Of a stretch of 42,595 bases of DNA, positions 10,614-42,142 are shown in pieces. A model generated the notes under the pieces. It saw only the letters and a list, made by a program, of their open reading frames with translations, ran no database searches and had not been told where the DNA came from. The translations under genes were made by a program, and so were the position numbers. How positions within the stretch are numbered: position 1 is the first letter of the stretch; every line of letters begins with the position of its first letter. Source of the DNA: Candidatus Micrarchaeia archaeon (GTDB lineage Archaea > Micrarchaeota > Micrarchaeia > Burarchaeales > JACRGF01); contig JAWCPB010000004.1 in NCBI GenBank assembly GCA_038870455.1, positions 1-42,595 on the forward strand, in the 5' to 3' direction.

Positions 10614-10860
10614 GGGCCCGTAGCTCAGCTTGGATAGAGCGATGCCCTCCTAAGACAAAGGGGGAAGTATCCCCCCTTCGTCCTAGACCTTCCCCCCTCT
10701 TTGGGATTAAGGCATTGATGAAAAAAGGGTTGCTGGAGGTATCGGAACCGCGCTGGCGGTTCTGATAGGGGTCAGGAGGAACCTGGAACTGGGGGAACCG
10801 AAGGTGCCCCCTGGGTTCGGAGAGAGGCAGAGGTCGCGCGTTCAAATCGCGCCGGGCCCG
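10614..10860 (+). tRNA. tRNA-Arg(CCT) with 172-nt intron at 37/38 (exons 10614-10652 and 10825-10860)
   Basis: Acceptor GGGCCCG/CGGGCCC+G, D-arm GCTC/GAGC, T-arm GCGCG-TTCAAAT-CGCGC. BHB: CTCC(32-35) pairs with GGAG(10819-10822), with 3-nt bulges TAA and AGA. One A27-G43 mismatch. Confidence 0.9.
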
Positions 10861-10863
10861 TTC

Positions 10864-11619
10864 ATGAACGAGCTGACTCCAGAGTTCAAGCTGGCCGTCT
10901 CACAGCTTGCGAATGCGCTTTCTCTCGCTGTAGAGGCCTCGCTGCGCTCGCCGCGCCCTGCGTGGGTGCTCTTCTCAGGAGGGCTGGACTCGAGCGTGCT
11001 TGCAAAGCTCGCGGGCGAGAAAAGGTCAGGCATTCACCTCCTGACGGTGGGAACTAAGGACAGCGAAGATGCGCGATTTGCATTTGAAATTGCAAAAGAG
11101 CTCGGCTTGCCTCTTGATTTTATTGAGCTGAACGTGCAGAAAATCGCCGAATTAAAGGAGCGGGCGAGGCCTTTTTCGCGGACCAACATGGATTTGGAGC
11201 TCGCCATTCTCCTGCTCGCGGCGTGCGAGTTCGCCAGAGGAGGGCTGCTGCTCGCGGGCTCCGGAGCCGAAGAGCTCTTCCTGGGCTACGCGCGCCACAG
11301 AAGCGCTTTTGAGAAGGGAGAAGATCTGGAGGCATTGAGAAGGAGCGAGCTCGCTTCCCTCAGGCAGCGCGACCTCGACAGAAACGAAGCAATCGCCAGG
11401 GCACACGATGCCGAGCTCGCCCTCCCATACCTTCATCCTCTTGTTGTCGAGGCTGCGCTGCGCCTGCCCGCGAGGCTGAACTTCTCGCAAGGCAAGCGCA
11501 AGTTCCTCCTCCAGCTTGCCGCGCGCATGGCCGGCGTTCCCGAGGCCGCCGTGTCAAGGCCCAAGCGCGCCCTCCAGTACGCCAGCGGCGTGCACAAACT
11601 TTTAAAAAGGAACGCGTAA
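10864..11619 (+). CDS. Asparagine synthase C-terminal (PP-loop) domain protein, no glutaminase domain
   Basis: FSGGLDSS, GSGAEELFLGY, LPYL and RPKRALQY motifs. ATG 3 nt after tRNA-Arg. Confidence 0.85.
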   Translation: MNELTPEFKLAVSQLANALSLAVEASLRSPRPAWVLFSGGLDSSVLAKLAGEKRSGIHLLTVGTKDSEDARFAFEIAKELGLPLDFIELNVQKIAELKERARPFSRTNMDLELAILLLAACEFARGGLLLAGSGAEELFLGYARHRSAFEKGEDLEALRRSELASLRQRDLDRNEAIARAHDAELALPYLHPLVVEAALRLPARLNFSQGKRKFLLQLAARMAGVPEAAVSRPKRALQYASGVHKLLKRNA

Positions 11620-11626
11620 GCATGGC

Positions 11627-14600
11627 GTGAGGAGCACGCTTCTCGCACTGCTTTTTCTTGCGTGTTTTGCCAGCGCCGCCATCGTTCCCGGAAAAAGCGG
11701 AACCACCTATAAGGACAACCCCGATTTTCCTCCAACCCTGCTCGAGCTCGCGGAGATTTTCTGGGACCACGACAACAGCGGCTATGCCGATGGCGACTAC
11801 TATCCCATCTATGTCTCGGACAAGACGGCGTTCGACAAGAGAAATCCTTTCCTGCTCTCCTACCTGCAGAACTGGTATGGCTCTGCGCACAGCGATGCCT
11901 TCAAGCGAAACGCCCTCGATGCAGGGGGCTGGGCAGGCGGGCCTCCGCGCGCAGAGTACAGGTACGTGCCGAACGCGGCCGCCGCGTTTTCCGAGAGCAG
12001 GGTGCAGGCGCACACCCCCTCCTATTATTCGGGCACCTACAAGCCCACCCCCACCGAGCTCATCCGCGCCTACACGAAAAACCCTCACTGGATAAAGGGC
12101 ATGCCGTACATTTTCGGGGGCTCGTCAATCGAGGACATCTATGGCTTTGTCGAGGATGCGGGCTGGAGCGGGACCCCTATAGAGGTCATCGGAGATGCCA
12201 AAGACGTTGCCACCTTCGCGATCGGCTATGTGCTGTACTTCGCGTTCGACATCCCTGGCTTCTATAAGGGCCTGTACGAGAAGATGCTTGAGGGGGAAAA
12301 GAAGAAGAAGCACATGCTGCTGCGGGCGGGCGTGTACGGGCCTGCCGGCCTTGTCATGGTCAATGAAGAGCGCACGGCAGCCTTCCGGCGTGTTGAAGAC
12401 ATTTCGGCCTCCCACGCGCGCGGCTCGGGCGCGTGGATACGCGCCTCCCAAGGAGCCGTTGAGGTGCTGGACGGCATAGCCGGCAAGACGGTTGTCGAGA
12501 GCACCGGCGGTTGGAAGGCCGAACACGATGACACGGTGCTCGCCCCAGCATCCGGCTCTTTCGACTCGGCAGTGATCTACTGGGACTTCATCCTCGAGGT
12601 CGATGAGCGCGGGGGAGACGGGGATTTTGCGGGCCACCTTCAGCTCGTGGCCACCGACAGCGCGGGCGGGGAGCATGTGCATGACCTGGCCGGCGCCAAC
12701 AAGGACCAGGCGCGGTGGAGCCCTGCGGCAGGCGATCGCCGCTACTTCGTGTGGTCCGGCGTCACCACAGTGAAGGCGGGCGATTACGGCACGGCCAAGC
12801 TAAAGGCGCTCAAGCTGAGCTCGACAGCGGCCACGAGCGCCTCAAAGGGCAACACGCGCGCGGTCGCCTATCTCGAGTTCTACCCGTTGTTGTACGAAAG
12901 GCTTTCGATGGACCTGAGGCCGACGAGCGCGCTCAACAAAACGCCCCCTGTCGAAGGCGAGAACATCACTGTGGATGCATGGATCGAAAACGTCGGTGAT
13001 GTGAATGCGCTGGACGTGCTGGCCGTGCTCAAGGACGGCGCGACCGAGCTCGGCTGGGCACGGCTCAACATCTCGGCCAACACAGCGGCAAAAGCCTCTT
13101 TTGGCTGGCAGCCCAGCGCAGGTAATCACACGCTGTCGCTCGAGGTGGTCAGCGAGGGAGGGGAGTGGGGCGTGCCCGATGCCAACCGCTCGAACAACAT
13201 CCTCAGGAAAGATGTTCGCGTGTATGCAGCCGGCGAGTTGCTGCCCGACCTCGCCGTGACCGACATCGGCCTGCCCCCTGTTGTGGGGGGCGTGCCGGCC
13301 ACGCTCACGGTAACCATTCAAAACAAGGGCGTAGCGACCACGGCCGGCCATCCATCGGCCAAGGCCTACTTTTATGTGGATGGCAAGAAAGTGCTGATAG
13401 GAGAAGTCCTGCCCCTCGCGCCCGGCGCCAACACCACCCTGCCATTCAGCCACACCTTTGAGTTCAGAGAATGCGACATGTACAAGCGAACTAACTATAA
13501 CATCTCAGTGCAGCTCGAGCCGGGCGCGCCCGATGCCGATGCCTCAAACAACGAGCTGTCCAAAATCGCCGCGGTGAGCGCGCCCGATGCGGCCAACCTC
13601 GTAGTTCTCAATCTGTTTCCGTCGAAGGGCAGGGCCGGCGTGCTCGACATGAAGGTCGGCCAGACAACGGAGATAGAGGTGCAGGTGGGCAACAACGGGC
13701 TGAAGAACTCCAGCCTGACCGACCTCAGGCTCTTCCGTGTTGTGGGCGGCGAAAGGTGGGAGATGACCTCGTGGCTGCTGCCGAAAATCAGCCCGGCAGG
13801 CCCGCCGGTTAGTTTCTACTACAATTGGTCCCCGCCCGCCAGGGGCGATTACGAGATAGAGGCCCACGCTGACTATGGGAAGAGGATCACCGAGCTGTGC
13901 GAGACGGACAACGTGCGCAAAGCGCACATCTCGGTCGAGCTTGCCTATCACAATGTGAGCCTCGGCTGCTGGCAGGCCGGCTCGCTCAAGGACGCCTGCT
14001 TTGCCAGCGCGGCCGAGGAGGGGGGCGCCTACAAGCAGATAACCTTCTATCCGGACATCGGCAACACCGGCACGCTGCCGGGCACATACAGGGTGACAGC
14101 GCAGCTTCCGGCTGGCTGGAGCGGGGCCTTTTCGAAAGAGTGGTTTGACATGACCCCCAAATCGGCCGAGGCCTTCCGCTATTTCGTCACGCCGCCAGCC
14201 AACGCGCTCGGCGGCAACAACACCATCACCCTCACGGCCGCGCTCGCCGGCAATGCGAGCGTGACCGACAACACCGTGCTCACGGTGTTCATCCCCGAGC
14301 ATTTCGCCGCAAACCTCTCGGCCACTTCGACGAGGCGCGAGGTGCGCGTGAATGAAACCGCAGTGTTTGATGTCACGCTGACCAACACGGGCAACACGCG
14401 CGACACCGAGTTTTTTGTGTGGTTTGGCGGCGACCTGACGGCGAACGCTTCCATCTCAAGCGTCCGGCTCAGCGCGGGCGAGAGCCGGAGCTTCACCGTG
14501 GCGGCCACGCCGCCCGAACTGACCGCAGGAAACTATTCCCTGACCGTCTTCGCGGGCACCACAGAGGCCACGCTCGCCAACCTCTCTCTCACCATCACGG

Positions 14601-17317
14601 TCAAGCCGTTCTACGAGATTTCGGTGGATGTCCCGCGCGCCTATGCGTTCGTCAACCTCACCTCTTATTTCGGCCGGCACGCGACCGCGTTCAATTTCAC
14701 GGTCAGGGTAAAATCAAACGCCGATGGCCGTGTGACAAACGAGCTCGCAGGCGTGCCCGGCGAGTGGCTGGCCGCTGCCTGGCCCGACAACCACACCTTT
14801 GAGGCCTACACAAAGGCGCGCTGGAGAGGCCCATTCGAGAAAGCCGGCCAGCTCTATGTCGGCGTGTTTCCGGACTTCAGCCCGCCCTTCTATCAGCCGC
14901 TCGCCGGCAACCGCACGTTCACGCTGACCACGCGCTTGTTCGACGACAGGGGCGCGCTGGTCAAATCGATCCCCAACAATTTCGTGGTTGAGGTGGAACA
15001 AGTGCATGCCGTGCGCGCCGGCTTCTATGCCGTGTTCTCGGGCCTGCGCAACCACACCATTCCCGTGTACGTCGCCGTGACCAACCTCGGCAATGGCCGT
15101 GATGATTTCAACCTCACTGTCTGGACCGAGCACGGCTGGACAGTGCGCGTGCCCAACCCGCGCATTCGCCTGGCGCCCTACCAGCTGCCCGGCTCGACTG
15201 GCATGGTGTTCGCCGAAGTCAGTGTGCCTGCTGACGCCGTGCCGGGCACGAACGAAACGCTGCACGCGCGGGCCGAGCGCGTTGGCCGTCCAGCAACAAA
15301 TCACACCGCAGAAGGCATACTGCGCGTTCGCCCCCTGCTCGAGATGGAGGGCGAGTGGAGGCGGGCCTATGTTTCGCACGCCGTGCTGCCAAACGCCACG
15401 ACATCCTATGAGATGAGGCTGTTCTACAACGGCGATGTGCCGGCTGAAGCCAACCTGTCGGCCGCCCTGCTGAGAGCCTCGCCCGCAGGCTGGAACCACT
15501 CGCTGTCGGCAGCCGCGCTCAATCTCACTCCGCTCTCCCACCAAGCCTTCCGCCTCTCCGTGCGCGCGCCCGACGCCGAGGAGGGAAATCACTCGCTGAA
15601 CATCACGGCGAGAGTGGGCGGGGAGAGTGCTGGCATCAGCGTATTCACCATAATAAGAAGATTCAATCTCACCCTCCAGCCGGGCTGGAACGCCCTGCCT
15701 GTGCCCATAGAAGCGGAGGCCGCGCCCGCCGCGCCAGCCCCTCCAGCGCCCGAGGCCTGGTGCACCGACTCCGACAACGGGAGGGACAGGCTCGTCAAAG
15801 GGCGGGTGAAAATTCCGGGCGGGGCATTCACCGACTACTGCATTTCATCGGATGCCGTGCACGAGTTCTACTGCGCGGACAACAACTACGCTTTTGAAGA
15901 CATCCCGTGCCTGCCGGACGAGACATGCCAGGATGGCAGGTGCGTGAAAAAAGCAGAGGAAGAGGCAGAGTGCCCGCCCAGCCGGCCTTACTGCCTGACT
16001 TCCCAGCAGGCAGCCGACAGGGGGTGCGTGCCGCCGCCCGGCCCCGAGTGCTCGCCGCTCGGCGAGTGGCCGCGGATGTGCTGGTGGTGCCCGACGCAAC
16101 TCCAGGCCGCAAGCTACAGCGAACCCGTTCTGCTGCTGGCGCCAGCCTCATCATCGCTTAAGAGCTTCACCGCCTCGCAGCTGGCCGCTCTCCTGCAGGC
16201 CCAGCTGCCCCGCGGCCGCGTGGTTGAAATCACAAGCTATGCGAACGGCTCCTTCCAGCACTTCATTGTCGGCATCACCCCACCCAACGCGTCCGAAGAC
16301 TTTTCTCTCGAGCCGGGCTCGGCCTACTGGGCGCGCATCGAAGGCGAGGGCGCGGCCATCACACTTCCAGCGCAGGCAACCGCCGAGCTGTCCCTCCAGC
16401 CCGGCTGGAATTTCGTGAGCGTGCCCGCGGCCGCGCGCGCCTCCCAAGCCTTCCCGGCCGCCACGCAAGTCTCGCTGTGGAGGCCCGCCGAACAGGCCTT
16501 CGCGGACTTCATTCCGGGCTTTCATCCCCCGCTCGGCGAGGGAGACCTGTGGCTCGTGCCGGGCGATGCAGTATGGATATTCTCTGGCGAGCGCGCTCGC
16601 CCGCAGGCAGAGGCCGCCGTGCCGCTGCCGCACGCAATCTACGGTGTGGTGAGCGAGGATGGAACTCCAGCCGAGGGAGCAGGAGTGACCCTCATCATCG
16701 AAAGCACTGGCGAGGCGCTGCACGCGCTCACGGATGCCCAAGGCAGGTTCTCAATCAACCTTGCCAACGCCCGCAGCGGGTACTATGACGGCGGAGGGGT
16801 GAGGATTTTGGCTTCAAAGGGGGAGCTCTTCGGCCAATCCTCGCTCATCGTTGACGCTTCGCGGCCAAACCAGCGGGCCGACCTCGCCCTCGCCGCAAAG
16901 CCGAACCTGCGCATCACGCTCGCGCCATCCAAGCCGGCTCCTGTTGAAGGCGAGCCCATCGCGCTCGCGGCCACGCTGTCCAACGAGGGAGGCGAGCCCG
17001 CAAACGCCAGCGCCGGCCTGTTCATTGACGGGCAACTCGCAGAAACAAAAAATGTTCTCCTTTCCTCGCACTCTGCCCAGCAGCTTCTGTTCGCCTGGAA
17101 CGCCTCTGCCGGAGCGCACGTCATTGTCGTGAAGGCAGAGCCCCTGCCCCTTGAGGCCTTTCTGGAAGACAACAGCGCCAACGCAACTGTCTCGGTCATG
17201 TCGAGGCCGGCGGTTGAGCTCGCCCCGCCGCCCGCCAGGCTCTGCCCGCTGTTCCTGCTGCCGGCCGCGCTCGCCCTGCTGCTCTTTGGCAGGCCGCGCT
17301 GCATGAAAACTTTTTGA
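11627..17317 (+). CDS. Large cell-surface protein with CARDB/Ig-like domains, a Cys-rich module and a C-terminal membrane anchor
   Basis: Signal peptide; repeated PDL/NL...IxNxG...D..NN CARDB motifs; many NxT/S sequons; two LQPGWN motifs; CTDSDNG module; C-terminal CPLFLLPAALALLLFGRPR. Confidence 0.9.
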   Translation: MRSTLLALLFLACFASAAIVPGKSGTTYKDNPDFPPTLLELAEIFWDHDNSGYADGDYYPIYVSDKTAFDKRNPFLLSYLQNWYGSAHSDAFKRNALDAGGWAGGPPRAEYRYVPNAAAAFSESRVQAHTPSYYSGTYKPTPTELIRAYTKNPHWIKGMPYIFGGSSIEDIYGFVEDAGWSGTPIEVIGDAKDVATFAIGYVLYFAFDIPGFYKGLYEKMLEGEKKKKHMLLRAGVYGPAGLVMVNEERTAAFRRVEDISASHARGSGAWIRASQGAVEVLDGIAGKTVVESTGGWKAEHDDTVLAPASGSFDSAVIYWDFILEVDERGGDGDFAGHLQLVATDSAGGEHVHDLAGANKDQARWSPAAGDRRYFVWSGVTTVKAGDYGTAKLKALKLSSTAATSASKGNTRAVAYLEFYPLLYERLSMDLRPTSALNKTPPVEGENITVDAWIENVGDVNALDVLAVLKDGATELGWARLNISANTAAKASFGWQPSAGNHTLSLEVVSEGGEWGVPDANRSNNILRKDVRVYAAGELLPDLAVTDIGLPPVVGGVPATLTVTIQNKGVATTAGHPSAKAYFYVDGKKVLIGEVLPLAPGANTTLPFSHTFEFRECDMYKRTNYNISVQLEPGAPDADASNNELSKIAAVSAPDAANLVVLNLFPSKGRAGVLDMKVGQTTEIEVQVGNNGLKNSSLTDLRLFRVVGGERWEMTSWLLPKISPAGPPVSFYYNWSPPARGDYEIEAHADYGKRITELCETDNVRKAHISVELAYHNVSLGCWQAGSLKDACFASAAEEGGAYKQITFYPDIGNTGTLPGTYRVTAQLPAGWSGAFSKEWFDMTPKSAEAFRYFVTPPANALGGNNTITLTAALAGNASVTDNTVLTVFIPEHFAANLSATSTRREVRVNETAVFDVTLTNTGNTRDTEFFVWFGGDLTANASISSVRLSAGESRSFTVAATPPELTAGNYSLTVFAGTTEATLANLSLTITVKPFYEISVDVPRAYAFVNLTSYFGRHATAFNFTVRVKSNADGRVTNELAGVPGEWLAAAWPDNHTFEAYTKARWRGPFEKAGQLYVGVFPDFSPPFYQPLAGNRTFTLTTRLFDDRGALVKSIPNNFVVEVEQVHAVRAGFYAVFSGLRNHTIPVYVAVTNLGNGRDDFNLTVWTEHGWTVRVPNPRIRLAPYQLPGSTGMVFAEVSVPADAVPGTNETLHARAERVGRPATNHTAEGILRVRPLLEMEGEWRRAYVSHAVLPNATTSYEMRLFYNGDVPAEANLSAALLRASPAGWNHSLSAAALNLTPLSHQAFRLSVRAPDAEEGNHSLNITARVGGESAGISVFTIIRRFNLTLQPGWNALPVPIEAEAAPAAPAPPAPEAWCTDSDNGRDRLVKGRVKIPGGAFTDYCISSDAVHEFYCADNNYAFEDIPCLPDETCQDGRCVKKAEEEAECPPSRPYCLTSQQAADRGCVPPPGPECSPLGEWPRMCWWCPTQLQAASYSEPVLLLAPASSSLKSFTASQLAALLQAQLPRGRVVEITSYANGSFQHFIVGITPPNASEDFSLEPGSAYWARIEGEGAAITLPAQATAELSLQPGWNFVSVPAAARASQAFPAATQVSLWRPAEQAFADFIPGFHPPLGEGDLWLVPGDAVWIFSGERARPQAEAAVPLPHAIYGVVSEDGTPAEGAGVTLIIESTGEALHALTDAQGRFSINLANARSGYYDGGGVRILASKGELFGQSSLIVDASRPNQRADLALAAKPNLRITLAPSKPAPVEGEPIALAATLSNEGGEPANASAGLFIDGQLAETKNVLLSSHSAQQLLFAWNASAGAHVIVVKAEPLPLEAFLEDNSANATVSVMSRPAVELAPPPARLCPLFLLPAALALLLFGRPRCMKTF

Positions 17318-17401
17318 ACGCAAGTCTCCGGCGTGAAAAGCTCTACTGCTCCTGCGAAACGTTTAAGTATCGGTGGCCGCCTAAAGGAAGGCGGGAGGCT
17401 C

Positions 17402-18454
17402 ATGAAAAAAGCAATCGCTCTTCTCTCGCTATTCCTCCTTTTCTTCGGCTGTGCAGGCGGGGAGACAAAGCCGCAGCCCCAGGGAACTTTTTACCTCCTT
17501 GTCACCGACAAAAAGTTCGACTTCCAGGGAGTCTCCAGCGTCCGCATTACGGTGAGCGAGGCAAAAATATTCTCTCCCCAACAGGGGTGGCTGACGGTCT
17601 CTTCCCTCAAGCAAACCATTGACCTCATGCAGCTTGCAAACTCGAACGCACTGCTGGCCCAGGCGGTCGTTCCCCCGGGAAATTATTCTCACGCAAGGCT
17701 GTTGATTGAACGCGCCGTGGTCACAGCGAACGGCGTTGAAAAGGAAGCGGTCCTGCCCAGCCACGAGCTGAAAATAGCCCTCCTCATTCAGGTCGAGCAA
17801 AACCTTTCCTCCACGCTCCTGCTTGACTTCGACCTCAATCGCTCGCTTCATTCCGCAGGGGACAAAATCGTTTTTGCTCCGGTAGTCAAGGCAGACTCCA
17901 GGGCAGGCGCGGTTGTCTCTACGCAAACCGGTGCGGTTCAAGGAGGCCGGTTTGTTTCCAGCGACATTTTCGGAATGAACGAGAGGGGGGAAGTGAATCC
18001 AGGCCAAGGAATTCCCGAAGACGCCGAGCTCGAGGTCGACGAAACCGGCAGAGTGAAAACGACCGGAATCCCTACCGCTCCCCCAGCCCAGCCTACAGCA
18101 TCCCCTTCAGACAACTACACCCATCCTGCAGGCACGCTTTCCTCCTGCGTCGAGCGCTGTCGCTTGTCCTGCTTTCCGGAATCCGCTTTCTCCTGCGAGT
18201 CGGACTGCAGGGCGCGCCTGGACGCCTCCTGCGACACCGCGTGCACCGGAAACGTTACGGTCTTCTGCGACACGCGATGCGAGTCCGACGTTTCATACAC
18301 GCAAGTCGCCTGTCTGACTTCCTGCCGCCTCAACGAGCTGCCAAAATGCAAGGCCAACTGCCTCGGCGACGCTGATGCAAACTGCAGGCTGAAATGCCAG
18401 ACTGCAGCCAATGCCTATGCCGCCTGCATGACGAACTGCACCACGGCCTGCTAG
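17402..18454 (+). CDS. DUF4382-like lipoprotein with Cys-rich C-terminal domain
   Basis: MKK..LFFGC lipobox-like signal; LVTD, IDLMQL, PGNY, LPS and LLDFD motifs; 18 Cys in the last ~100 aa. Confidence 0.8.
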   Translation: MKKAIALLSLFLLFFGCAGGETKPQPQGTFYLLVTDKKFDFQGVSSVRITVSEAKIFSPQQGWLTVSSLKQTIDLMQLANSNALLAQAVVPPGNYSHARLLIERAVVTANGVEKEAVLPSHELKIALLIQVEQNLSSTLLLDFDLNRSLHSAGDKIVFAPVVKADSRAGAVVSTQTGAVQGGRFVSSDIFGMNERGEVNPGQGIPEDAELEVDETGRVKTTGIPTAPPAQPTASPSDNYTHPAGTLSSCVERCRLSCFPESAFSCESDCRARLDASCDTACTGNVTVFCDTRCESDVSYTQVACLTSCRLNELPKCKANCLGDADANCRLKCQTAANAYAACMTNCTTAC

Positions 18455-18494
18455 CCTGAAAACTTATTAACTTTTTTAACACAAGCTTTCTCTC

Positions 18495-23122: not shown

Positions 23123-23139
23123 CTCTTCACCTGGAGGTT

Positions 23140-23217
23140 CTAGGAACCAACGATGTGACGAGGAGCGAGCCTCGCGACAGCGAGGTGCGAGCGACGAAGT
23201 CATCGGTTGGTTCCTAG
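23140..23217. repeat. 78-bp palindromic element with CTAG ends (MITE/REP-like)
   Basis: Perfect 11-bp terminal inverted repeat CTAGGAACCAA / TTGGTTCCTAG, extended by CGA..TGAC / GTCA..TCG; inner hairpin CCTCGC-GACA-GCGAGG. Confidence 0.8.
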
Positions 23218-23293
23218 TGGGCCCGGCGGGATTTGAACCCACGACTTCCTGGTTAAAAGCCAGGCACTCTAGGCCAAGCTGAGTTACGGGCCC
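23218..23293 (-). tRNA. tRNA-Lys(TTT), intronless
   Basis: GGGCCCGTAACTCAGCTTGGCCTAGAGTGCCTGGCTTTTAACCAGGAAGTCGTGGGTTCAAATCCCGCCGGGCCCA folds to a cloverleaf; TTAAAAA upstream at 23317-23323. Confidence 0.95.
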
Positions 23294-33748: not shown

Positions 33749-33751
33749 TGA

Positions 33752-34084: not shown

Positions 34085-34584
34085 TTTACTCCCCCCAGTA
34101 TTTTGGTCAGAAGCGCGACCGCTTCCTCGGCGTTCTTCGCCTCCATTATAACATCATTTCTCTTTCCATCAACCGCTTTTCCCGCAAACTCGTCGCTATA
34201 GCCGCCCGTTCCTCTGATTGCTATAATTGGTTTTTTGTAAATCCATCCCACGCACAGCTCGCTCAGCGTTCCGGCCTCGCCTCCGATCATCACGATGGCA
34301 TCGCACGACAGCGCCACCACCTGGTTCCTCGCCCACTCGAGGCCTGTGGCTATCCTGTAATCCACGAACGGGTTGGCCTCGGCGATGTCCTTGCCGGGCA
34401 GCACCCCCACTGTTGTTCCCCTCTCGCTCTTCGCCCCCCTGCACACAGCCTCCATGACGCCCCCAAGCCCGCCGCACACGACCACAAAACCTTTTTTCGC
34501 CAGCAGCCTCCCCAGCCTTTCCGCTTCCTCAAGGCTCTTCCTTGTGGGGTTGAGGTGAGTCCCTATGACGCCAATCTGCTTCAC
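34081..34584 (-). CDS. TIGR00725 / LOG-like Rossmann protein
   Basis: CGGLGGVMEAVCRGA, ARN and GGEAGTLSE motifs. Confidence 0.88.
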   Translation of the reverse strand: MKQIGVIGTHLNPTRKSLEEAERLGRLLAKKGFVVVCGGLGGVMEAVCRGAKSERGTTVGVLPGKDIAEANPFVDYRIATGLEWARNQVVALSCDAIVMIGGEAGTLSELCVGWIYKKPIIAIRGTGGYSDEFAGKAVDGKRNDVIMEAKNAEEAVALLTKILGGVK

Positions 34585-34625
34585 TGCAACACCAATTAAA
34601 CCTCTTCTCGCCTAAATTCAAAAAC

Positions 34626-35255
34626 ATGCTGTCGAAGCTCGCCAGGCTCGCTCGCGTGCAGGAAACGCTGTCGAAGAAAGTGGTTTTGAGAAACGGCTTT
34701 AGGAAGCTGCATCTAGTTGGGGGAGCGGATGCGGCCTACGCGCGCGGAAAAATCATTTCTGCAATAGTGGTCTGTGACGCAAATACTCTCGAAGTTGTCG
34801 AGCGAAAGCTCGCTGTTCTTCCCTCCCCTCTCCCATATATCCCTGGCTTTCTCGCCTTCCGCGAGTTCCCCGCGCTTGCAGCCGCCTTCAAGAAGCTCAA
34901 GCGCAAGCCCGACCTCCTCCTCATCAACGGCCATGGAATATGCCACCCACGCGGCTGCGGCCTCGCCAGCCATGTGGGCCTGCGGCTCAAAACGCCAACA
35001 ATCGGCGTGGCGCAAGGCCTTATGAGAGAAACTGTTGAAAGAAAAGGAAAGCTATTTATCGGAAAACGTTTTGTCGGGCACGTAGTGCGGCGTCCCTCCT
35101 TCGCCCCCATTTTCGTTTCGCCGGGCCACCTCGTTTCCCTTGCATCCTCAGCGCGCCTGGCCCGCCGCTTCCTCCGCGGCCACCGACTTCCAGAGCCGCT
35201 TTTCCACGCACATGTTCTGGCTGAAAGGATTAAGAGAGCTGAAGGGCTGGGTTAA
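34626..35255 (+). CDS. nfi: Endonuclease V (catalytic Asp-to-Asn variant)
   Basis: GADAAY, PYIPGFLAFRE, NGHGICHPR..GLASHVG, FVSPGH and RLPEP motifs. Confidence 0.92.
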   Translation: MLSKLARLARVQETLSKKVVLRNGFRKLHLVGGADAAYARGKIISAIVVCDANTLEVVERKLAVLPSPLPYIPGFLAFREFPALAAAFKKLKRKPDLLLINGHGICHPRGCGLASHVGLRLKTPTIGVAQGLMRETVERKGKLFIGKRFVGHVVRRPSFAPIFVSPGHLVSLASSARLARRFLRGHRLPEPLFHAHVLAERIKRAEGLG

Positions 35256-35271
35256 CTGATGGTGGAGGGCG

Positions 35272-36741
35272 CTACCTGTGCTGTTTTTTCCTTGCAACAA
35301 TAAAAACTTCCTGTTTGGGGTTAATCCTGGCCAGAATTCGCCCGTTCTCGTTCACGACATTCCTCCACCCAGTATTCTCGTACTTGTCGCCAAACACGCT
35401 TGCATCGAATCTGTCGAATTTCCGTGAAATCACTGTGGGATTGTCTCCTCTCCTGACTTGATACGAAAACACGTCGTTGCCCTCCCGATTCCTTCTGACA
35501 AACTCAAAATAAAAATCGGGGAGGTCTGTGTAATCGCTTCCCTGACTTGAGCAGGCCGCACCTTTTCCCGGAGGAAAATGGCGGTTAAACCACCGCTCAA
35601 CTTCTTTGAGCGAGCTCTCCGAAACCTCTTCCCCCAACTCCTTCACGTTCTTCAAGTAGCAACGCTGATACACCCTAACGCTCCTGACGTGGTCTGTATC
35701 CTCAGGAGAGCGGGAGGGCATTCCGCAGTTGTACGCCGAAAGTGCGGCATCCCACGAACCGTATTTTTTGTACTCCACCTTCAAATACTTCGCGGCAGCA
35801 CGCGCGGACTTTTCTACATCGAATCTCTCGTCTTCTTTTGACATCCTCTCGTAATCCCAGTTCATGCTCTCCGCCCATTGTCTTAGCTTTATCCCATAAT
35901 TTCTGTCCCTTCCGGTCGCGTTCGAATTCCCCCACACCTTAAGCCCGAATAGCTTTGCCGTGCCGGGCTGGAACATGAAAAGCCCTGCCCCGCCATCATC
36001 ATTTGCATTCAGCGCGAGGGGGTCACCGAAGCTCTCCCTCATAGCAAGCCCTGCCAGCAGGCCAGGCGGAATGCCGAATTCTCCTTCGACTTTCTCCAGT
36101 ATCCTGCTCCACCTGAAAACACGCAGAAATCTTCCGTAATACGAGTGGGGGTTTGTTTCCCTGATATCAACCGGGCCGATTTTTTTTGGAATCAGCGCCT
36201 CCAGCGCGGTCGGGGTGATGCTTGCCACTTTCTCTTCTTCAATCCTCTCCTGGTTTTTTCTCTCATCGCTCTCAAAAGCCCGGGTTATCCTCATCCCATC
36301 GTACCTGAAATTCCCCAGCGTGGTTCCAAAGCTAAGCGCGTTATACAGGGCAAGCAAGACGCCGAGTTGGCTCGCAGTCCTCACCCAGCTGAGAGCGGTC
36401 GCCTCCACACCCTTCCGAATCCTTTTCTTATGAAATTCCTTTATTCTTCTAGCAACCGGGATGATGATATGCTTGTTGACATACGGCCAGCCCATCACAA
36501 GGCCCGCATACGTGGCCAGCTTTGCCAGTCCGCCGTGAGAATTTGCATGCTGAAAAACGACGTTGAGTAACCTGTCGGCTCCATAAATGTATGCAGCGTT
36601 TCCGGCAAGCCAGGCAAGCGTTGGATCAACGTACTTGTCGAAAACCGGTTTTCTCCTGCTCCTATACTCTTTGAGCCGTGTCCAAATCTCTTCAACAACT
36701 AGTTTGGCTTTCTCCCTGGCAGCCCTAAGCTCCATGAACAT
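35272..36741 (-). CDS. Membrane-anchored lytic transglycosylase (SLT/GH23) with C-terminal LysM-like domain
   Basis: AMRESFGDPLA (catalytic Glu codon 36034-36036), GAGLFMFQPGTA, AAKYLK..YGSWDAALSAYNCG, YQVRRGDNPTVISRKF; N-terminal hydrophobic helices. Confidence 0.85.
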   Translation of the reverse strand: MFMELRAAREKAKLVVEEIWTRLKEYRSRRKPVFDKYVDPTLAWLAGNAAYIYGADRLLNVVFQHANSHGGLAKLATYAGLVMGWPYVNKHIIIPVARRIKEFHKKRIRKGVEATALSWVRTASQLGVLLALYNALSFGTTLGNFRYDGMRITRAFESDERKNQERIEEEKVASITPTALEALIPKKIGPVDIRETNPHSYYGRFLRVFRWSRILEKVEGEFGIPPGLLAGLAMRESFGDPLALNANDDGGAGLFMFQPGTAKLFGLKVWGNSNATGRDRNYGIKLRQWAESMNWDYERMSKEDERFDVEKSARAAAKYLKVEYKKYGSWDAALSAYNCGMPSRSPEDTDHVRSVRVYQRCYLKNVKELGEEVSESSLKEVERWFNRHFPPGKGAACSSQGSDYTDLPDFYFEFVRRNREGNDVFSYQVRRGDNPTVISRKFDRFDASVFGDKYENTGWRNVVNENGRILARINPKQEVFIVARKKQHR

Positions 36742-36774
36742 ATGTTTTTTAGAAAACCCGGTATATAAAGCTTT

Positions 36775-38001
36775 TCATTTTCCGCGCCTGTATGCGTCCT
36801 CGAGCGCCTTGACGCCCGGAAGCTGCATGCCCATGAGGAACTCGATGAACGCCTTGCCCGCGAGGCTCATGTAAGAAAACCTCTTTCCGTCGAGCTTTAG
36901 CTTGCTTACAGCATCGACGGTGTTTCCTCCTCCGAGCAGTGAGAAGGCCTTTGAGTTTGCGACCGCGCGCAGCACCGACTCGGTTCCCTTGCCGAAATTG
37001 GCCTCCTCATACACGCCCATGGGTCCGTTCATTATGATGGTGTTGCTCTGGCTGATGAAATCGCCGTACCTCCTCGCGGTCTCGCTGCCGATGTCTTTGA
37101 TGGGCGCGAGGGTGGGCAGCTGAATGACATCCTGCTCCACCCTCTCCCCGTCTTTTTCGAAAGCGAAATCAACCGGCACCTGTATTTTCCCATCGTACTT
37201 TGCCAACAGCTCCTTGGCTTTCGGAATGTGTTTGTCGAGACCCTTCTGGACAAGGAATTTCGTCGTCGGCACGCCAAGATCCCTTCCTTCCGCAGCGAGA
37301 AAGATGTTTCCCACCGCCCCGCCCGTGAGCACCCTGTCGAGAATGCCTCTGCCGAGCCAGTACTCGATTATCTGCATCGTGTCCTCCGCCTTCACTCCTC
37401 CGGCGATGAGCGTGAGCGGTTTCCTGGGATTCTCCAGCGCTTTCGAGAGCGACTTGACCTCCCTCTCCATCACCCTGCCCGCGCAAGTCGGAAGCACATA
37501 GGCGAAGCCGATGATGCTGCAGTGGGGTCTGTGCGCGGCGGAAAACGCGTCGAGAACAAAATAGTTCGCGTGAGGCGCGAGCGCCCTGACGAAAACGCTT
37601 TTTGCATGCGCCTCGCCGGGCTTCTCAATCGTCTCCTCGGCAAGAAAACGCACGTTCTCCAGAAGCAGGATTTCGCCGTTCTTCAGCGCCTTGATTCTCC
37701 CGAGCGCGTTCGAGCCGAAGACATCATCCACATACCCAACGCTTTTCCTCACATACTTCGCCAGCAGCTCGGCGTGGGGCTTGAGCGGCAGAAAGTCGGG
37801 GTCGCCCACCCTCCCCTGGTGCGACATGAGCACGATGCGCGCGCCCTTCTCGCTGAGCTCGCGAATGGTTTCGGAGTGGCTCTCTATCCTCTCGCTGGCG
37901 AGAATGCGGCCGCTCGCGGGGTCCATCGAGGAGTTGATGTCCACCCGCGCGAGGACGGTCTTTCCCTTGAACCCGAAGTCGTCCATTGTGAAAAAGTCCA
38001 T
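36775..38001 (-). CDS. pgk: Phosphoglycerate kinase
   Basis: RVDINS, SHQGR, LLENVRF, DAFSAAHR, NGPMGVYE and GGGNT motifs. Start MDFFT at 38001. Confidence 0.96.
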   Translation of the reverse strand: MDFFTMDDFGFKGKTVLARVDINSSMDPASGRILASERIESHSETIRELSEKGARIVLMSHQGRVGDPDFLPLKPHAELLAKYVRKSVGYVDDVFGSNALGRIKALKNGEILLLENVRFLAEETIEKPGEAHAKSVFVRALAPHANYFVLDAFSAAHRPHCSIIGFAYVLPTCAGRVMEREVKSLSKALENPRKPLTLIAGGVKAEDTMQIIEYWLGRGILDRVLTGGAVGNIFLAAEGRDLGVPTTKFLVQKGLDKHIPKAKELLAKYDGKIQVPVDFAFEKDGERVEQDVIQLPTLAPIKDIGSETARRYGDFISQSNTIIMNGPMGVYEEANFGKGTESVLRAVANSKAFSLLGGGNTVDAVSKLKLDGKRFSYMSLAGKAFIEFLMGMQLPGVKALEDAYRRGK

Positions 38002-38062
38002 GCCCCACACCCTAAAGCCTGTTTTCGCGAAAACATTTAAATTGGCTGGTGGCGAGTAATGA

Positions 38063-39082
<1,020 letters not shown>

Positions 39083-39086
39083 GCCG

Positions 39087-40424
39087 CTACAGCGCATCGA
39101 CTATTTCCTTAGCCTTCCCGACATAAGTAGAGTAGTCGAACAGCTCCTCCAGCTCTCTCGCTGTCAGCAGCCTCGTCACCTCGGCGTTCTCCGCAAGCAC
39201 TTCCTTGAGGTGTCTGCCCTCGCTCTTGGCCTTGATGCTCGCCTCCCTCAAAAGCGCGTGCGCCCGTCCCCTCGGCATTCCCTTTTCGGCCAGCGCAATC
39301 ATCACCCTCTCTGCGAGAATAAGGCCCTTGCTGCCCTCAAGATTCCTCTTTATGTTCTCGGGAAAGAACTCGAGCCCGCCGAGAATGGCCGTGGCTTCCT
39401 TGAGCATGTAATCGGTGATTATGAAGCTCTCCGAGAAGACGAGCCTCTCGCTCGCGCTGTTCGTCAAGTCCCTCTCGTGCTCCAGCGGAATGTTCTCGAG
39501 CGCGGCCAGCACGTTCGCCCTCACCACCCTCGCCAGCCCGCATATTCTCTCGCTGCGGTGCGGGTTTCTCTTCTGCGGCATTGTGGAGCTTCCCACCTGC
39601 CGCCTGCCGAACGGCTCCGCGACCTCCGCTATCTCGCTTCTCTGCAGGTTCCGGATTTCTTTAGCGATTTTCTCCATCGTTGCCGCAATGAGCGCGAGGA
39701 TGAACAGCGCCTCGGCGTGCCTGTCCCTCTGAATCACTTGGTTGGTCGCCTCGGCCGCGTGCAGCCCCAGTTCCCGCATCACTGCCTGCTGGAGCTTGAA
39801 AGCGTCTTTCCCGAACGTGGCCATGCTTCCGACAGCCCCGCTCATCTTGCCGACATACAGCCTCTTCCCGGCCTCCTCCAGCCTCTCCAAGTGCCTCTCG
39901 AGCTCTCTCGCCCACACCGCGAACTTGAGCCCGTAAGTCGTCGGCACGGCGTGTTGGCCGTGCGTCCTGCCGACGCACACGAGGTCCCGCTTTTCTTTCG
40001 CAAGCCTTACGACAATGCCATGCAGCTCCCTCAGCCTCTTTTTTATCAAAGCAAAGGCGTCCCTGAAAACGAGCGCAGTTGCCGTATCCTCTATGTCGTA
40101 GCTCGTCGCCCCCAGATGGACGAACGCGCCCGCCTCCCCGCCGCAGGCCTCCTCAAGCGCCCTCACCATGGCCATTAGGTCGTGGTGAATCTCGGCCTCG
40201 ATCTGCCTGACCCGCTCGAGCCTGACTTTTCCGGCCGCCCGGGCTATCCCCTCAGCAGCCTTTTTTGGAATGTGCCCCAGCTTGGCATGCGCTTTAGCGA
40301 GAGCGACCTCCACCTCAAGCCACTTGGCAAGTTTTTTCTCTTCATCAAAAACAGCGTTCATCTCAGTCGCGTACCGGTTGTCAAGCGCCGAGACAGCCAA
40401 CCAATCACCTTTAAATCCCGCCAA
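39087..40424 (-). CDS. purB: Adenylosuccinate lyase
   Basis: HLGATS, GRTHGQHA, GKMSGAVG, GSSTMPQKRNP and HERDL motifs. Confidence 0.96.
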   Translation of the reverse strand: MAGFKGDWLAVSALDNRYATEMNAVFDEEKKLAKWLEVEVALAKAHAKLGHIPKKAAEGIARAAGKVRLERVRQIEAEIHHDLMAMVRALEEACGGEAGAFVHLGATSYDIEDTATALVFRDAFALIKKRLRELHGIVVRLAKEKRDLVCVGRTHGQHAVPTTYGLKFAVWARELERHLERLEEAGKRLYVGKMSGAVGSMATFGKDAFKLQQAVMRELGLHAAEATNQVIQRDRHAEALFILALIAATMEKIAKEIRNLQRSEIAEVAEPFGRRQVGSSTMPQKRNPHRSERICGLARVVRANVLAALENIPLEHERDLTNSASERLVFSESFIITDYMLKEATAILGGLEFFPENIKRNLEGSKGLILAERVMIALAEKGMPRGRAHALLREASIKAKSEGRHLKEVLAENAEVTRLLTARELEELFDYSTYVGKAKEIVDAL

Positions 40425-40461
40425 GCAATTTGGACTCCGGATTTAAAAACTTGCGGCATTA

Positions 40462-40842
40462 ATGATAGCGGATGGTTGTATGGTGCTCGACCGCATCGGA
40501 GGCTTTCTGCGGGTGATCTGGGAGGGCCACGACACTGACGTGCTGCTAATCGAGCTGCTCAACCTCTTTCTCATAGTCCTGCTAGTCAATCGCCTGCTCG
40601 AGTTTGCGCTCAGGGCGCAGGGGCGTACGCTGGCGGTCACGCTGCGTTATCTCGCCTATGCGTTCGTCGCCCTCGGAGGCGCGATCGTCATCGGCCTCAT
40701 GGAGCCCGTTGGAGGCATTCGCTGGAACCTGTTGTTTGCCTTTGCCCAAAGCGTTTTCATTGCCTCGGCCTTCTTCGCCATCAACCACCTCAAGGAGTCG
40801 ATGGCGGCGTACGAGCATCTCCTCAAGAGAAACAAGGGATGA
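40462..40842 (+). CDS. Hypothetical membrane protein
   Basis: Three hydrophobic segments; TTTAAAAA promoter-like motif upstream. Start may instead be 40480. Confidence 0.65.
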   Translation: MIADGCMVLDRIGGFLRVIWEGHDTDVLLIELLNLFLIVLLVNRLLEFALRAQGRTLAVTLRYLAYAFVALGGAIVIGLMEPVGGIRWNLLFAFAQSVFIASAFFAINHLKESMAAYEHLLKRNKG

Positions 40843-40845
40843 GCT

Positions 40846-40892
40846 GAGGAAAGAAAAAAGAAAGAAAAAGAAAGAGAAAAAGAAAGGAAAAG
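40846..40892 (-). terminator. 47-nt pure purine tract (U-rich on the minus strand), likely terminator of the TRAM gene
   Basis: GAGGAAAGAAAAAAGAAAGAAAAAG... lies between convergent genes, just past the TRAM stop. Confidence 0.55.
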
Positions 40893-40898
40893 CAGCCT

Positions 40899-41165
40899 CT
40901 AAGCGCTTGGCTCGCCTGCTCCGCCTGCTTCGCCGACTTTCTGCGCTATGGCGAAAGAGCGCCTGACTTCGGTGATTTTCACCTTCACCTTGTCGCCCAC
41001 CTTCGTGTCGGGCACGAAGATGACGAAACCCTCTTTCTTCGCTATTCCGTCTCCCTTGGAGGCGACCGCCTCGATTGTGACCTCGAGTTCCTCGCCCGCG
41101 CTTACGGGCTTGGGACCGATGTCTCCGCCTCCTCTGCCTCCGAATCCGCCTCTTCCGTATGCCAT
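40899..41165 (-). CDS. Single-TRAM-domain RNA chaperone
   Basis: RGG-rich N-terminus followed by KPVSAGEELEVTIEAVASKGDGIAKKEGFVIFVPDTKVGDKVKVKI. Confidence 0.92.
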   Translation of the reverse strand: MAYGRGGFGGRGGGDIGPKPVSAGEELEVTIEAVASKGDGIAKKEGFVIFVPDTKVGDKVKVKITEVRRSFAIAQKVGEAGGAGEPSA

Positions 41166-41175
41166 TCTTTCATTC

Positions 41176-41250
41176 TCCAAACAGCAGAATTAGCACCTGT
41201 CCGTCCGCTTTACCGCGCTTTCCGTTCAGCTGCCTTACTGCCTGTTCGAA
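41176..41250 (-). promoter_or_regulatory. Structured 5' leader of the TRAM gene
   Basis: Stems TTCGAACAG/CTGTTTGGA, CAG/CTG, GCAGCTG/CAGGTGC and CGC/GCG; TTTATAAA at 41269-41276. Confidence 0.55.
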
Positions 41251-41281
41251 TATATCACGCTGGAGCGCTTTATAAACTTTC

Positions 41282-41509
41282 CTATCGCCCCCGGAGAAAG
41301 GCGCTGGCGAAAAGCCCTCCCACGACTTCTATGCCCGCTCCGACAGCCACGAGCGTGCCGCCCGCGGCCATGGCCGCCCCGCCGCCCGGGTCGACCGCGG
41401 CCACGGGGTTTCCAGGCACCGAGGAAGCCGCGCCGGCTCCCATGAGCCCGGCTCCCACGGCCATGAGCCCGGGCCCCGCGTATTTCCCGACTGACTCCAT
41501 GATCGCCAT
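41282..41509 (-). CDS. Small Gly/Ala-rich hydrophobic protein (glycine-zipper-like)
   Basis: GAGLMGAG and GGTLVAVGAG..VGG repeats; GGAGG RBS upstream. Confidence 0.65.
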   Translation of the reverse strand: MAIMESVGKYAGPGLMAVGAGLMGAGAASSVPGNPVAAVDPGGGAAMAAGGTLVAVGAGIEVVGGLFASAFLRGR

Positions 41510-41519
41510 TTCGGCCTCC

Positions 41520-41900
41520 TCACGCGCGCAGCGCCCTTGTTGCGTTTTCGATGCTGTCCGGCTTGAGCACGAGTTCGGCGCTCTCCCTGTCGCTGGAAAG
41601 CTGGTAGATGCACTCGATGTTCACGCCGGCTCTGGCGAGCTTTCTGGCAATCTTGGCGAGCTCGCCCGGCCTGTGCCTCAGCTTTATCGTCATCACGTCC
41701 CCGACGCTGACCCTGAAACCGGCTTTCTCGAGCGCGTTGACGGCAGTCCTCTCGTCCTCGGTAATGAGCCGAATGACCCCTTCGTTTCCCGAGCCCTGTG
41801 CGCTTATGCTCTTAATATTCACTCCGCTCGCGCCGAGCGCTTCCGTAACGTCGGCCAGCGCGCCCACCCTGTTCTCAACAAGTACTGTAATCTGCCTCAT
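41520..41900 (-). CDS. Tandem ACT-domain protein
   Basis: MRQITVLVENRVGALADVTEALG..GVNI and HRPGELAKIARKLARAGVNI. Confidence 0.9.
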   Translation of the reverse strand: MRQITVLVENRVGALADVTEALGASGVNIKSISAQGSGNEGVIRLITEDERTAVNALEKAGFRVSVGDVMTIKLRHRPGELAKIARKLARAGVNIECIYQLSSDRESAELVLKPDSIENATRALRA

Positions 41901-41947
41901 CAAACCAGCCTCCTGTTTTACTACTCGCATCAGCTATAAAAACTAAG

Positions 41948-42142
41948 CGCCGGGGGCGAGATTTTCGAACCCTTTTTCCGTCAACGCTTTTGCAAGCGAG
42001 GGTTGTTCGAACTCGCGAAGGCTTTTGGCCCAACAGCTTTCCGAACACCCCACCCAGACAAGAGGGGAGGGTCCAGGACGAAGGGGGGATGCTCCCCCCT
42101 TTGTCTTAGCAGGCTGCCGCCCTACCACTAGGCGACCCCAGC
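41948..42142 (-). tRNA. tRNA-Ser(GCT) with two introns (37/38: 42039-42106, 68 nt; 59/60: 41962-42005, 44 nt)
   Basis: Acceptor GCTGGGG/CCCCGGC+G, anticodon stem GCAGC/GCTGT, long variable arm, T-stem GCGAG/CTCGC. The T-loop intron has a strict BHB (TTCG/CGAA, bulges AAC and AAT, outer AACCCT/AGGGTT). The 37/38 BHB is imperfect. Confidence 0.9.

Follow-up and report, generated by a model that had tools for sequence, protein, structure and literature searches.

In Thermoproteales, families of introns are common to different transfer RNAs (tRNAs), and the mechanism of their spread is given as unknown (PMC4090602; 10.64898/2026.10.13.758758). For Asgard archaea, a 2026 tRNA census put copying, mobile elements, and reverse transcription to the test, found no general arrival route, and left the question of arrival open (10.64898/2026.10.13.758758). 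In ARMAN-2, which has tRNAs with several introns, the ε2 splicing endonuclease (PDB 4fz2) has been shown to cut both strict and relaxed bulge-helix-bulge (BHB) motifs (PMC3488258, PMC3239211). The origin of archaeal tRNA introns is an open question. Here, we analyzed a 42,595-nt stretch of DNA (the window), which is contig C4 of a Candidatus Micrarchaeia archaeon genome (G000; 1.04 Mb in 51 contigs, 60% GC, 90% complete), together with a congener (G001; 95% complete) whose unique flanking sequences are 77-99% identical to those of G000. Both genomes are fragmented metagenome bins with repeat arrays at contig ends. The window carries closely matching 43-nt sequences in introns of two tRNA genes, tRNA-Arg(CCT) and tRNA-Ser(GCT), and an earlier note on this DNA had proposed that these represent a recently spreading, mobile family of tRNA introns. 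We found that the 43-mer belongs to a family of short hairpin modules that combine into mosaics. These modules are probably mobile at the DNA level and kept within tRNAs as introns spliced out by the endonuclease EndA.

Direct comparison of positions 10653-10695 (plus strand) with 42106-42064 (minus strand) confirmed the reported identity of 39 out of 43 nucleotides (91%), the differences at positions 13, 16, 33, and 38 all being transitions. A BLAST alignment between the two loci grows to 45/50 (E 9e-16), because the adjoining anticodon-loop bases, CCTNCTA, agree as well. The match lies far beyond chance, since the same module is present on 12 other contigs. Both 43-nt stretches start immediately after tRNA position 37, that is, at 37/38 as had been claimed, according to ARAGORN with its intron option (-i) for tRNA-Arg and to excision tests for both genes. 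The G-run/C-run hairpin that had been predicted in each was formed in RNA folds of both precursor tRNAs. When the search for the 43-mer was extended to the whole genome and its relatives, as the earlier note had suggested, BLAST matches appeared on 13 contigs of G000, some of them as head-to-tail pairs 44 nt apart, and also in G001, so that the sequence is not a two-copy repeat.

To delimit the introns, we combined in silico excision and ARAGORN with a BHB test in which, for cuts after positions p and q, the central pairs join p-5..p-2 with q-2..q-5, the outer helix starts at p-6/q+2, and the inner one at p+2/q-6. Automated excision returned tRNAs at 17 of 48 repeat clusters, many of them spurious, and only vetted solutions were retained. 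Module limits, direct repeats in the D modules of other families, the identity of a tRNA on contig C26, and the 33-nt in-frame inserts described below were set by eye. Without the intron option ARAGORN found tRNA-Lys as the sole tRNA in the window, as did Rfam, which matched no family other than tRNA there. Rfam tRNA matches above cut-off numbered 15 in the whole G000 genome, which fits heavy interruption of its tRNAs.

The insert of tRNA-Arg(CCT) might be split into a first intron followed by others. We read it instead as one composite intron (Table 1) with a canonical BHB, in which the central helix has four of four pairs (CTCC/GGAG), the outer helix 4 bp, and the inner helix 2 bp. A two-intron model was tried and rejected, as its AAGGCAT, which could pass for a 3' strand of the anticodon stem, is part of module E, recurring on contig C18 and in the congener, and its second BHB is without complementarity (by hand). 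It is the position of AAGGCAT within a repeat module that led us to the single intron. The price of this model is an A27-G43 mismatch in the anticodon stem, noted by eye. The precursor folds with a z of -2.9, and the 3' junction, GGTTCGGAG-AGA-GGCAG, is kept in G001. By eye, positions 10716-10764 also hold the words of a C/D box, UGAUGA in module E and CUGA about 45 nt downstream in module C, with no Rfam match.

ARAGORN recovered tRNA-Ser(GCT) only after two excisions, and the product corresponds to the G001 gene, which lacks the 68-nt intron. The BHB of this first intron is relaxed, with three of four central pairs, a 5-bp outer helix, and a 1-bp inner helix; C35 is the unpaired base, as the earlier note had it, and the motif is indeed weaker than the 4/4 of tRNA-Arg. 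The second intron has four of four central pairs, an outer helix of 5 bp, and an inner helix of 6 bp, and the minimum-free-energy (MFE) fold of the Ser precursor (z -3.4) shows two 3-nt bulges around a 4-bp helix at this T-loop intron. A search of G000 for tRNA-Ser(GCT) matched at the window locus only. A 2,067-nt Logan contig (run X1) spans 41300-42304 with zero differences, and from this agreement the Ser locus is no obvious chimera, although the run may be the source sample and is therefore not independent. Among contigs of three DNA runs over 41300-42595, none joined across the Ser intron and no intron-less variant was seen; being contigs only, these are uninformative on absence. Upstream of tRNA-Ser, at about 42185-42215 on the minus strand, the promoter region GGAATAAAAAGGTTGCTGG resembles the E/C module junction GATGAAAAAAGGGTTGCTGG; directly upstream of that region, G001 has an inserted module array of 505 nt in inverted orientation.

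Table 1. Features of the two interrupted tRNA genes and of a module beside tRNA-Lys in the window.
Feature	Positions	Strand	Basis or remark
tRNA-Arg(CCT), whole gene	10614-10860	+	ARAGORN -i, anticodon cct, one 172-nt intron, i(40,172)
tRNA-Arg(CCT) 5' exon, positions 1-37	10614..10652	+	ARAGORN -i; recovered again after in silico excision
tRNA-Arg(CCT) single composite intron at 37/38, 172 nt, A+E+C+D end to end	10653..10824	+	ARAGORN, BHB test
Module A in Arg intron (43-mer + CCCTC), hairpin GACAAAGGGGG/CCCCCCTTCGTC	10653..10700	+	hairpin in MFE fold
Module E in Arg intron, GGATTAAGGCATTGATGAAAAAAGGG	10701..10732	+	repeat part, not exon; also at C18:7929-7953 outside tRNA-Arg and in G001 arrays
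Module C in Arg intron, hairpin GGAGGTATCGGAACC...GGTTCTGATA	10733..10767	+	also in other families of the same order
Module D in Arg intron, ends GGGTTCGGAG	10768..10822	+	its GGAG is the intron side of the BHB central helix
tRNA-Arg(CCT) 3' exon: A38, GGCAG, variable loop, T arm, acceptor	10825..10860	+	ARAGORN, excision, fold
tRNA-Ser(GCT) 5' exon	42107..42142	-	excision and ARAGORN; same sequence as G001 gene
tRNA-Ser(GCT) predicted intron 1 at 37/38, 68 nt: module A (42106-42064) and 25-nt tail ending GTGTTCGGAA	42039..42106	-	BHB test
tRNA-Ser(GCT) middle exon: anticodon stem 3' strand, long variable arm, T stem and loop start	42006..42038	-	excision, G001 comparison, fold
tRNA-Ser(GCT) predicted intron 2, T loop 59/60, 44 nt: degenerate module B and GGGTTCGAAAA	41962..42005	-	BHB test
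tRNA-Ser(GCT) 3' exon	41948..41961	-	excision, G001 comparison, fold
CL module, 81 nt, 3 nt from 3' end of tRNA-Lys(TTT) (23217-23293, minus)	23133..23213	+	outside a tRNA

The 43-mer proved to be part of a modular repeat family. Module A consists of GACAAAGGGGGG, a loop, and CCCCCCTTCGTC, followed by CTAGACCTTCCC; module B of CAACCCTTTT, a variable hairpin, and AAAAGCGTTGACGGAAAA; module C, with its long form CL, of GGAGGTATCGGAACC...GGTTCTGAT; and module D of GGGGTCAGGAGGAACC, a hairpin, and GGTTCGGAG. Module E resembles the 3' half of module B, and all of these combine into mosaic arrays. K-mer and self-BLAST maps of G000 outlined 61 repeat blocks totaling 6,005 nt, a lower bound because many blocks lie at contig ends. 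Non-overlapping BLAST counts in G000 were 42 for B, 27 for CL, 21 for D, and 19 for A, and a strict search for module A gave 60 copies, 16 of them in G000 and 44 in the 22 loci of G001 that were sampled.

At least seven tRNAs of G000 contain B-type introns. Inserts of this type with a good BHB are found in the D loop of tRNA-Gln(TTG), in the anticodon loops of tRNA-Gln(CTG), tRNA-Cys(GCA), tRNA-Val(CAC), and tRNA-Leu(GAG), and in both the D and T loops of tRNA-Lys(CTT). A further tRNA, on contig C26, is interrupted three times, by B in its D loop, by A in its anticodon loop, CTCGTAA, and by two B in its T loop. With all three inserts excised, ARAGORN accepts a cloverleaf and labels it Gly(ACC); reading the anticodon by eye gives Thr(CGT). 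We also observed that tRNA-Arg(CCG) is divided between two contigs in G000, its 5' half, with B, B, A, and a T-run behind it, at C11:9337-9510 and its 3' half at C38:1-190, and that in G001 the same flanks are joined by a 229-nt A-A-CL-CL intron. As the halves are contiguous in G001, the split in G000 may be a mis-join at repeats or a recent, real gene split. Two other repeats of G000 are unrelated to the modules, namely a 43-nt word occurring three times at about 120-nt spacing (C22:27-310) and a short, GAGAGAAGAGCTCGCGTTTGAAAA-like tandem repeat (C24:15171-15245).

The surroundings of the 60 strict A copies reveal a bias at the left junction. In 20 copies the preceding sequence is a further A, and in 16 it is an end or a start of some other module; the left flank is unique in the remaining 24. 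Every one of the 24 unique flanks ends in A before GAC, and 10 of them read TAA, in a genome of 60% GC. They include three anticodon loops (CCTAA, GCTAA, and CGTAA), two tRNA 3' ends, and one stop codon; of the 24 copies or arrays with such a flank, a minority sits in anticodon loops and the rest at tRNA 3' ends, at stop codons, or inside arrays. Several inserts are accompanied by duplicated flanking DNA. A 317-amino-acid open reading frame (ORF) with the catalytic domain of PolD DP2 (E 1e-77) has an A+D composite that begins within its TAA stop codon, and behind this composite the final 45 nt of the gene occur once more. At C42:123-411, a tandem of 2.5 repeats unites a D module with about 65 nt from the 5' end of tRNA-His and the DNA upstream of it. 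In other families of the order, D modules are accompanied by 11- and 19-nt direct repeats of tRNA ends and by a tandem of unit plus flank (by eye; L007), and Ser intron 1 in G000 has a 3-nt AAG duplicated at both junctions. The modules have subterminal hairpins and a biased left flank (TAA in 10/24, A in 24/24), yet some insertions come with duplications, and by eye the terminal ends A and D are not inverted copies of each other. The position of a CL module beside a tRNA end, as at tRNA-Lys in the window, was seen again at tRNA-His (C42) and tRNA-Pro (C44); a role in termination or in the processing of tRNA ends is conceivable for modules so close to the mature ends.

Comparison with the congener showed that the modules turn over at orthologous sites. 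G001 tRNA-Ser(GCT) has the exact empty site, CCTGCT-AAGCTGT, without the 68-nt insert, and the T-loop intron is common to both species. The G001 tRNA-Arg(CCT) locus is split over two contig ends by repeats, with a 3' junction identical to that of G000 and different inner modules, namely an added CL and another D hairpin. Arrays of 275 and 297 nt stand in G001 at two intergenic sites where G000 has module fragments of 19 and 27 nt; these fragments (G000:C3:10792-10812 and C15:15459-15485), which lie between convergent genes, look like deletion scars. After the PolD stop codon, A directly follows TAA in both species, and D and the 45-nt duplication are present in G000 only. The commonest 40-nt form of A is nonetheless identical across species, with four copies in G000 and six in G001. 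Therefore, gain, extension, and erosion of arrays appear to take place over the time in which species separate, while the sequence of the modules themselves stays fixed. The family envisaged in the earlier note is thus multi-copy and structured and changes place between close species, as the empty site and the array differences indicate; it is not specific to tRNA introns, as most A copies are found outside anticodon loops.

Across the order, tRNA-Ser(GCT) is intron-less in G006, has unrelated 37/38 introns in G003/G011 and in G004, and has a D-loop intron in G022; G013 carries a B-like 37/38 intron ending GGGTCGGAA, and the T-loop intron of G003 is a D module. This diversity points to repeated, independent insertions into one tRNA. 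A search of the nearest outgroup, G002, for tRNA-Ser(GCT) gave no match. We lean toward a gain of the Ser insert in the G000 line; a precise loss in G001 is a serious possibility. An arrival of the Ser copy from another tRNA, as the earlier note had imagined, was not borne out, and its recent arrival is doubtful, because none of the 30 distinct A variants is, by eye, more diverged than the Ser and C26 copies and the insert may have been lost from G001.

The modules differ widely in distribution. Matches to the whole Arg intron came from 16 of 41 relatives and from none of the 12 genomes outside the order. Module A (query 1-47) matched only G000 and G001 among the 41 relatives, with no match in viral contigs or in JGI metagenome contigs; C and D occur in several families of the order. 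Module B reaches much further. Its 18-base 3' core was found in more than 116 genome stretches, and 52 of the 80 loci listed are labeled archaeal, with listed hosts in Micrarchaeia, Iainarchaeum, Aenigmatarchaeota, Woesearchaeota, Parvarchaeota, Nanoarchaeia, Altiarchaeia, Methanocellales, Methanosarcinales, Methanophagales/ANME-1, Syntrophoarchaeum, Thermoplasmatales, and others. Among the matches listed, the 5' half AACC[CT]NTT stood 10-59 nt upstream of the core in 45/53 archaeal versus 0/28 bacterial ones. Viral carriers of B were considered and rejected, as all eight viral matches to the 18-mer are without the 5' half and are taken as chance matches. In an alignment of 30 B copies, the basal stem and tail are invariant and the apical stem covaries (CG/GC/UA at two pairs).

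Eleven of the B matches listed lie inside tRNAs found by ARAGORN, and in these tRNAs of other archaea the start of B is 0-3 nt away from the 5' splice site. In 7 of the 11 the BHB is 4/4, its outer helix measuring 5 bp or more. Rfam confirmed three B host tRNAs and, at six B-bearing loci, matched no family to B itself (E<=1). Direct repeats of 11-34 nt abut the 5' end in 5 of 41 B copies, compared with at most 10 nt in shuffled controls. A two-part B pattern occurred in 11 of 301 genomes of the phylum, with 29 copies in G000, more than in any other, and a control search with the pattern reversed found 0. In metagenomes the pattern was found in at least 120 stretches; of 81 elements, 7 were inside tRNAs and 11 within 60 nt of an ARAGORN tRNA. 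In metagenome-assembled genomes of Methanophagales (L077) and Methanosarcinales (L095), a 29-nt minimal B plus 4 nt stands at the same place in homologous ORFs. This 33-nt insert, equal to 11 codons, leaves the frame open (by eye) and may be a BHB-type insert in a protein gene; the host protein may be PaREP1-like.

We searched the two module-rich genomes for enzymes that might splice or move the modules. A 387-amino-acid ORF on contig C25 contains the N- and C-terminal domains of EndA (PF01974, PF02778) and matches PDB 4fz2 over its full length (E 3e-135). The predicted introns share with EndA-spliced tRNA introns a cloverleaf after removal, 3-nt bulges 4 bp apart (relaxed in Ser intron 1), and an encoded ε2 EndA. 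A second, 352-amino-acid EndA-like ORF lies in the C2:67432-67674 region (L014:1468-2526, minus), with endonuclease N- and C-domains only in its last 160 residues, after a 190-residue N-terminal part. No dedicated mobility enzyme was found in G000 or G001 among Y1 transposases, reverse transcriptases, tyrosine integrases, and TnpB, DDE families not being part of the search. Y1_Tnp (PF01797) gave 0 matches in each, in a search that matched 6 of 14 control genomes; RVT_1 (PF00078) and Phage_integrase, the tyrosine integrase domain, each gave 0/2; and TnpB yielded only sub-threshold matches of 20 bits. Five relatives have a Y1 transposase, and no module lies beside the four TnpA loci examined. 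A Cas1 domain is present in a 426-amino-acid open frame at G001:C7:2057-2899, and none was found in G000.

From these comparisons we infer how such introns may arise. The 43-mer would represent module A, the 5'-terminal hairpin of small, non-coding mosaic elements (A, B, C/CL, D, and E) that would be copied and rearranged as DNA within this Micrarchaeia-like genus. Landing would occur at short A-rich sites, typically ...TA/AGAC (the slash marking the junction), such as U36-A37-A38 of anticodon loops, tRNA gene ends, and positions just after stop codons; the TAA bias at the left junction would explain why A stands at 37/38 of tRNAs whose anticodon ends in U. Once in a tRNA, the insert would survive because its conserved 3' end (...GGUUCGGAG, or GGGUUCGAA after B) can pair with C32-U33 or with the T-loop UUCG. 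The D end, GGAG or TCGG, would pair with C32-U33-N34-N35 (4/4 in Arg-CCU, 3/4 in Ser-GCU), and the CGAA or CGGA of GGGTTCGAA or GGTTCGGA with the T-loop TTCG; since TTCGAA is palindromic, the sequence that seems to repeat the T loop directly is at the same time complementary to it. As this pairing builds the central helix of a BHB, an ε2-type endonuclease would excise the insert as an intron. With no element-encoded enzyme in sight, we tentatively suggest that the route could be transposase-independent copy-paste, for example by replication template switching or short-homology recombination between hairpin repeats. It is also conceivable, if speculative, that A, B, and D are undescribed, pan-archaeal, splice-ready hairpin mini-elements of 30-60 nt, moved by a core cellular activity that reads the invariant stem. 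Their conserved ends would mimic or complement universal tRNA loops (UUCG(A/G)A, C32-U33), so that landing in a tRNA loop would immediately yield a BHB.

We favor movement at the DNA level because copies are found in non-tRNA DNA, with flanking duplications and scars. These same observations bear on the idea that excised BHB introns are re-inserted in RNA, by reverse splicing or by mis-ligation through EndA and RtcB, and copied back to DNA. That the tRNA inserts sit precisely at BHB-competent sites, that B-type introns of other archaea begin within 3 nt of the 5' splice site with a full central helix in 7/11, and that tRNA-to-tRNA transposition of introns has been proposed for Thermoproteales (PMC4090602), are all in its favor. 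However, many copies stand after stop codons, between genes, or in reverse orientation beside tRNAs without an evident BHB, flanking DNA duplications of 11-65 nt are unexpected from reverse splicing, and a reverse transcriptase, as a SINE-like retroelement would draw upon, was found in neither genome (RVT_1 0/2), which makes this route very improbable. Somewhat better placed, though still unlikely, is the explanation that the modules are host-useful RNA or DNA signals, such as protein-binding hairpins, tRNA processing or termination signals, or K-turn-like motifs, which are selected and spread by ordinary recombination. The commonest 40-nt A is identical in two species with flanks differing by up to 23%, the basal stem and tail of B hold across phyla while the apical stem covaries, modules frequently abut tRNA 5' or 3' ends, and E and C contain UGAUGA and CUGA words (by eye). 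A selected signal sits less easily with a patchy spread (A in one genus of 41 relatives, strict B in 11/301 genomes of the phylum), with arrays that decay to scars and match no Rfam family, and with orthologous tRNAs that do without modules, such as the intron-less Ser(GCT) of G006 or the gene in G001 that lacks the A insert.

Derivatives of classical transposons, either PATE or REP/BIME of IS200/IS605 or MITEs of a DDE- or Cas1-type element with the enzyme supplied in trans, would account for the hairpins at both ends of A...D composites, their fixed orientation, the conserved base and TAA bias at the left junction, and the BIME-like mosaic arrays; target duplications of such length bring to mind integrases of the Cas1 family, and a Cas1 ORF is present in G001. 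Yet Y1 was not found in the two genomes richest in modules, the four TnpA loci checked in relatives have no module beside them, Cas1 was not found in G000, and the duplications (3 nt for AAG, 45 nt, about 65 nt, and 11-34 nt elsewhere) have no fixed length of the kind expected of MITE target sites; from the searches made, DDE families not among them, we regard this origin as decidedly unlikely. An artefact of mis-assembly or of chimeric metagenome contigs might be suspected from the many arrays at contig ends, one of them with an N run, and from the tRNA-Arg(CCG) halves on separate contigs. It is barely credible, given that both window copies are mid-contig or backed by a separate contig build, that modules recur in a second species and C, D, and B in many other genomes and metagenomes, and that excision restores proper cloverleafs. 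Several points also weigh against DNA-level mobile modules kept as spliced introns. The Ser and C26 copies are, by eye, among the most diverged of the 30 A variants, and for Ser this argues against a very recent arrival; with no match in the nearest outgroup, G002, and a mixed picture elsewhere in the order, the Ser difference may be a precise loss from G001 as well as a gain in G000. The BHB of the C26 tRNA is poor (about 2/4 by hand), the MFE fold of Ser intron 1 is without the central helix, and long duplications flank only a minority of copies, as the B counts show. That A is nearly identical between the two species, and the B stem between phyla, suggests sequence-specific recognition by some factor rather than passive template switching, and, with G000 90% complete and arrays at contig ends, an enzyme or autonomous element could be unassembled.

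G000 and G001 offer introns and free-standing copies of the same modules together, and the exact empty site, the growing or decaying arrays at orthologous sites, and the duplications make the arrival step testable. If the modules are indeed splice-ready mini-elements, archaeal tRNA introns would still be arising from them directly, as would an occasional insert in a protein gene, and they would move without a transposase or reverse transcriptase of their own. Moreover, module B is common to DPANN, methanogen-related, and Thermoplasmata-related lineages, which points to a conserved archaeal hairpin that is without annotation and for which neither tRNA finders nor Rfam have a model.

Compared with known systems, the modules resemble the Thermoproteales families in their predicted BHB-dependent splicing by a broad-specificity endonuclease and in identity between introns of different tRNAs, which at 91% for Arg(CCT)/Ser(GCT) exceeds the 70-80% used there, with a third A in the anticodon loop of the C26 tRNA. 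They differ in belonging to a DPANN (Micrarchaeia-like) genus with an ε2 EndA and in being short hairpin modules in mosaics. A family of the Thermoproteales type would be confined to tRNAs, whereas here most copies lie outside tRNA exons, after the PolD stop codon, at tRNA 3' ends, and in intergenic arrays, some with flanking DNA duplications, and module B is common to several phyla. ARMAN-2 (Candidatus Micrarchaeum acidiphilum) shares a full-length ε2 EndA homologue and tRNAs interrupted at D, anticodon, and T loops, including 59/60, but the accessible sections of the two papers on it, supplementary tRNA tables aside, describe no repeated intron modules or copies outside tRNAs (PMC3239211, PMC3488258). 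Like REP/BIME, PATE, and MITE sequences, the modules are short, non-coding, hairpin-forming, multi-copy, and orientation-specific, with mosaic arrays and a biased flank; unlike them, they have no Y1/RAYT found in two module-rich genomes and no fixed-length duplication, and many copies lie within tRNA genes and need RNA splicing. Integration-derived disruption of tRNAs, as set out by Sugahara et al. 2012 (PMC3293823), likewise has direct repeats of tRNA or gene ends flanking the insert and ties intron gain to a mobile element, but its insert is about 1.9 kb with a putative recombinase, in contrast to 45-500 nt of non-coding DNA and no tyrosine integrase found here. The literature searched, which did not extend to the ARMAN and Asgard supplementary tables or to Fujishima 2010, contained no description of the modules and no motif strings of the 3' half of B. 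What is new here, beside these systems, is the combination of modular mosaics, many copies outside tRNAs, orthologous empty and scar sites, flanking duplications, and a module B that crosses phyla.

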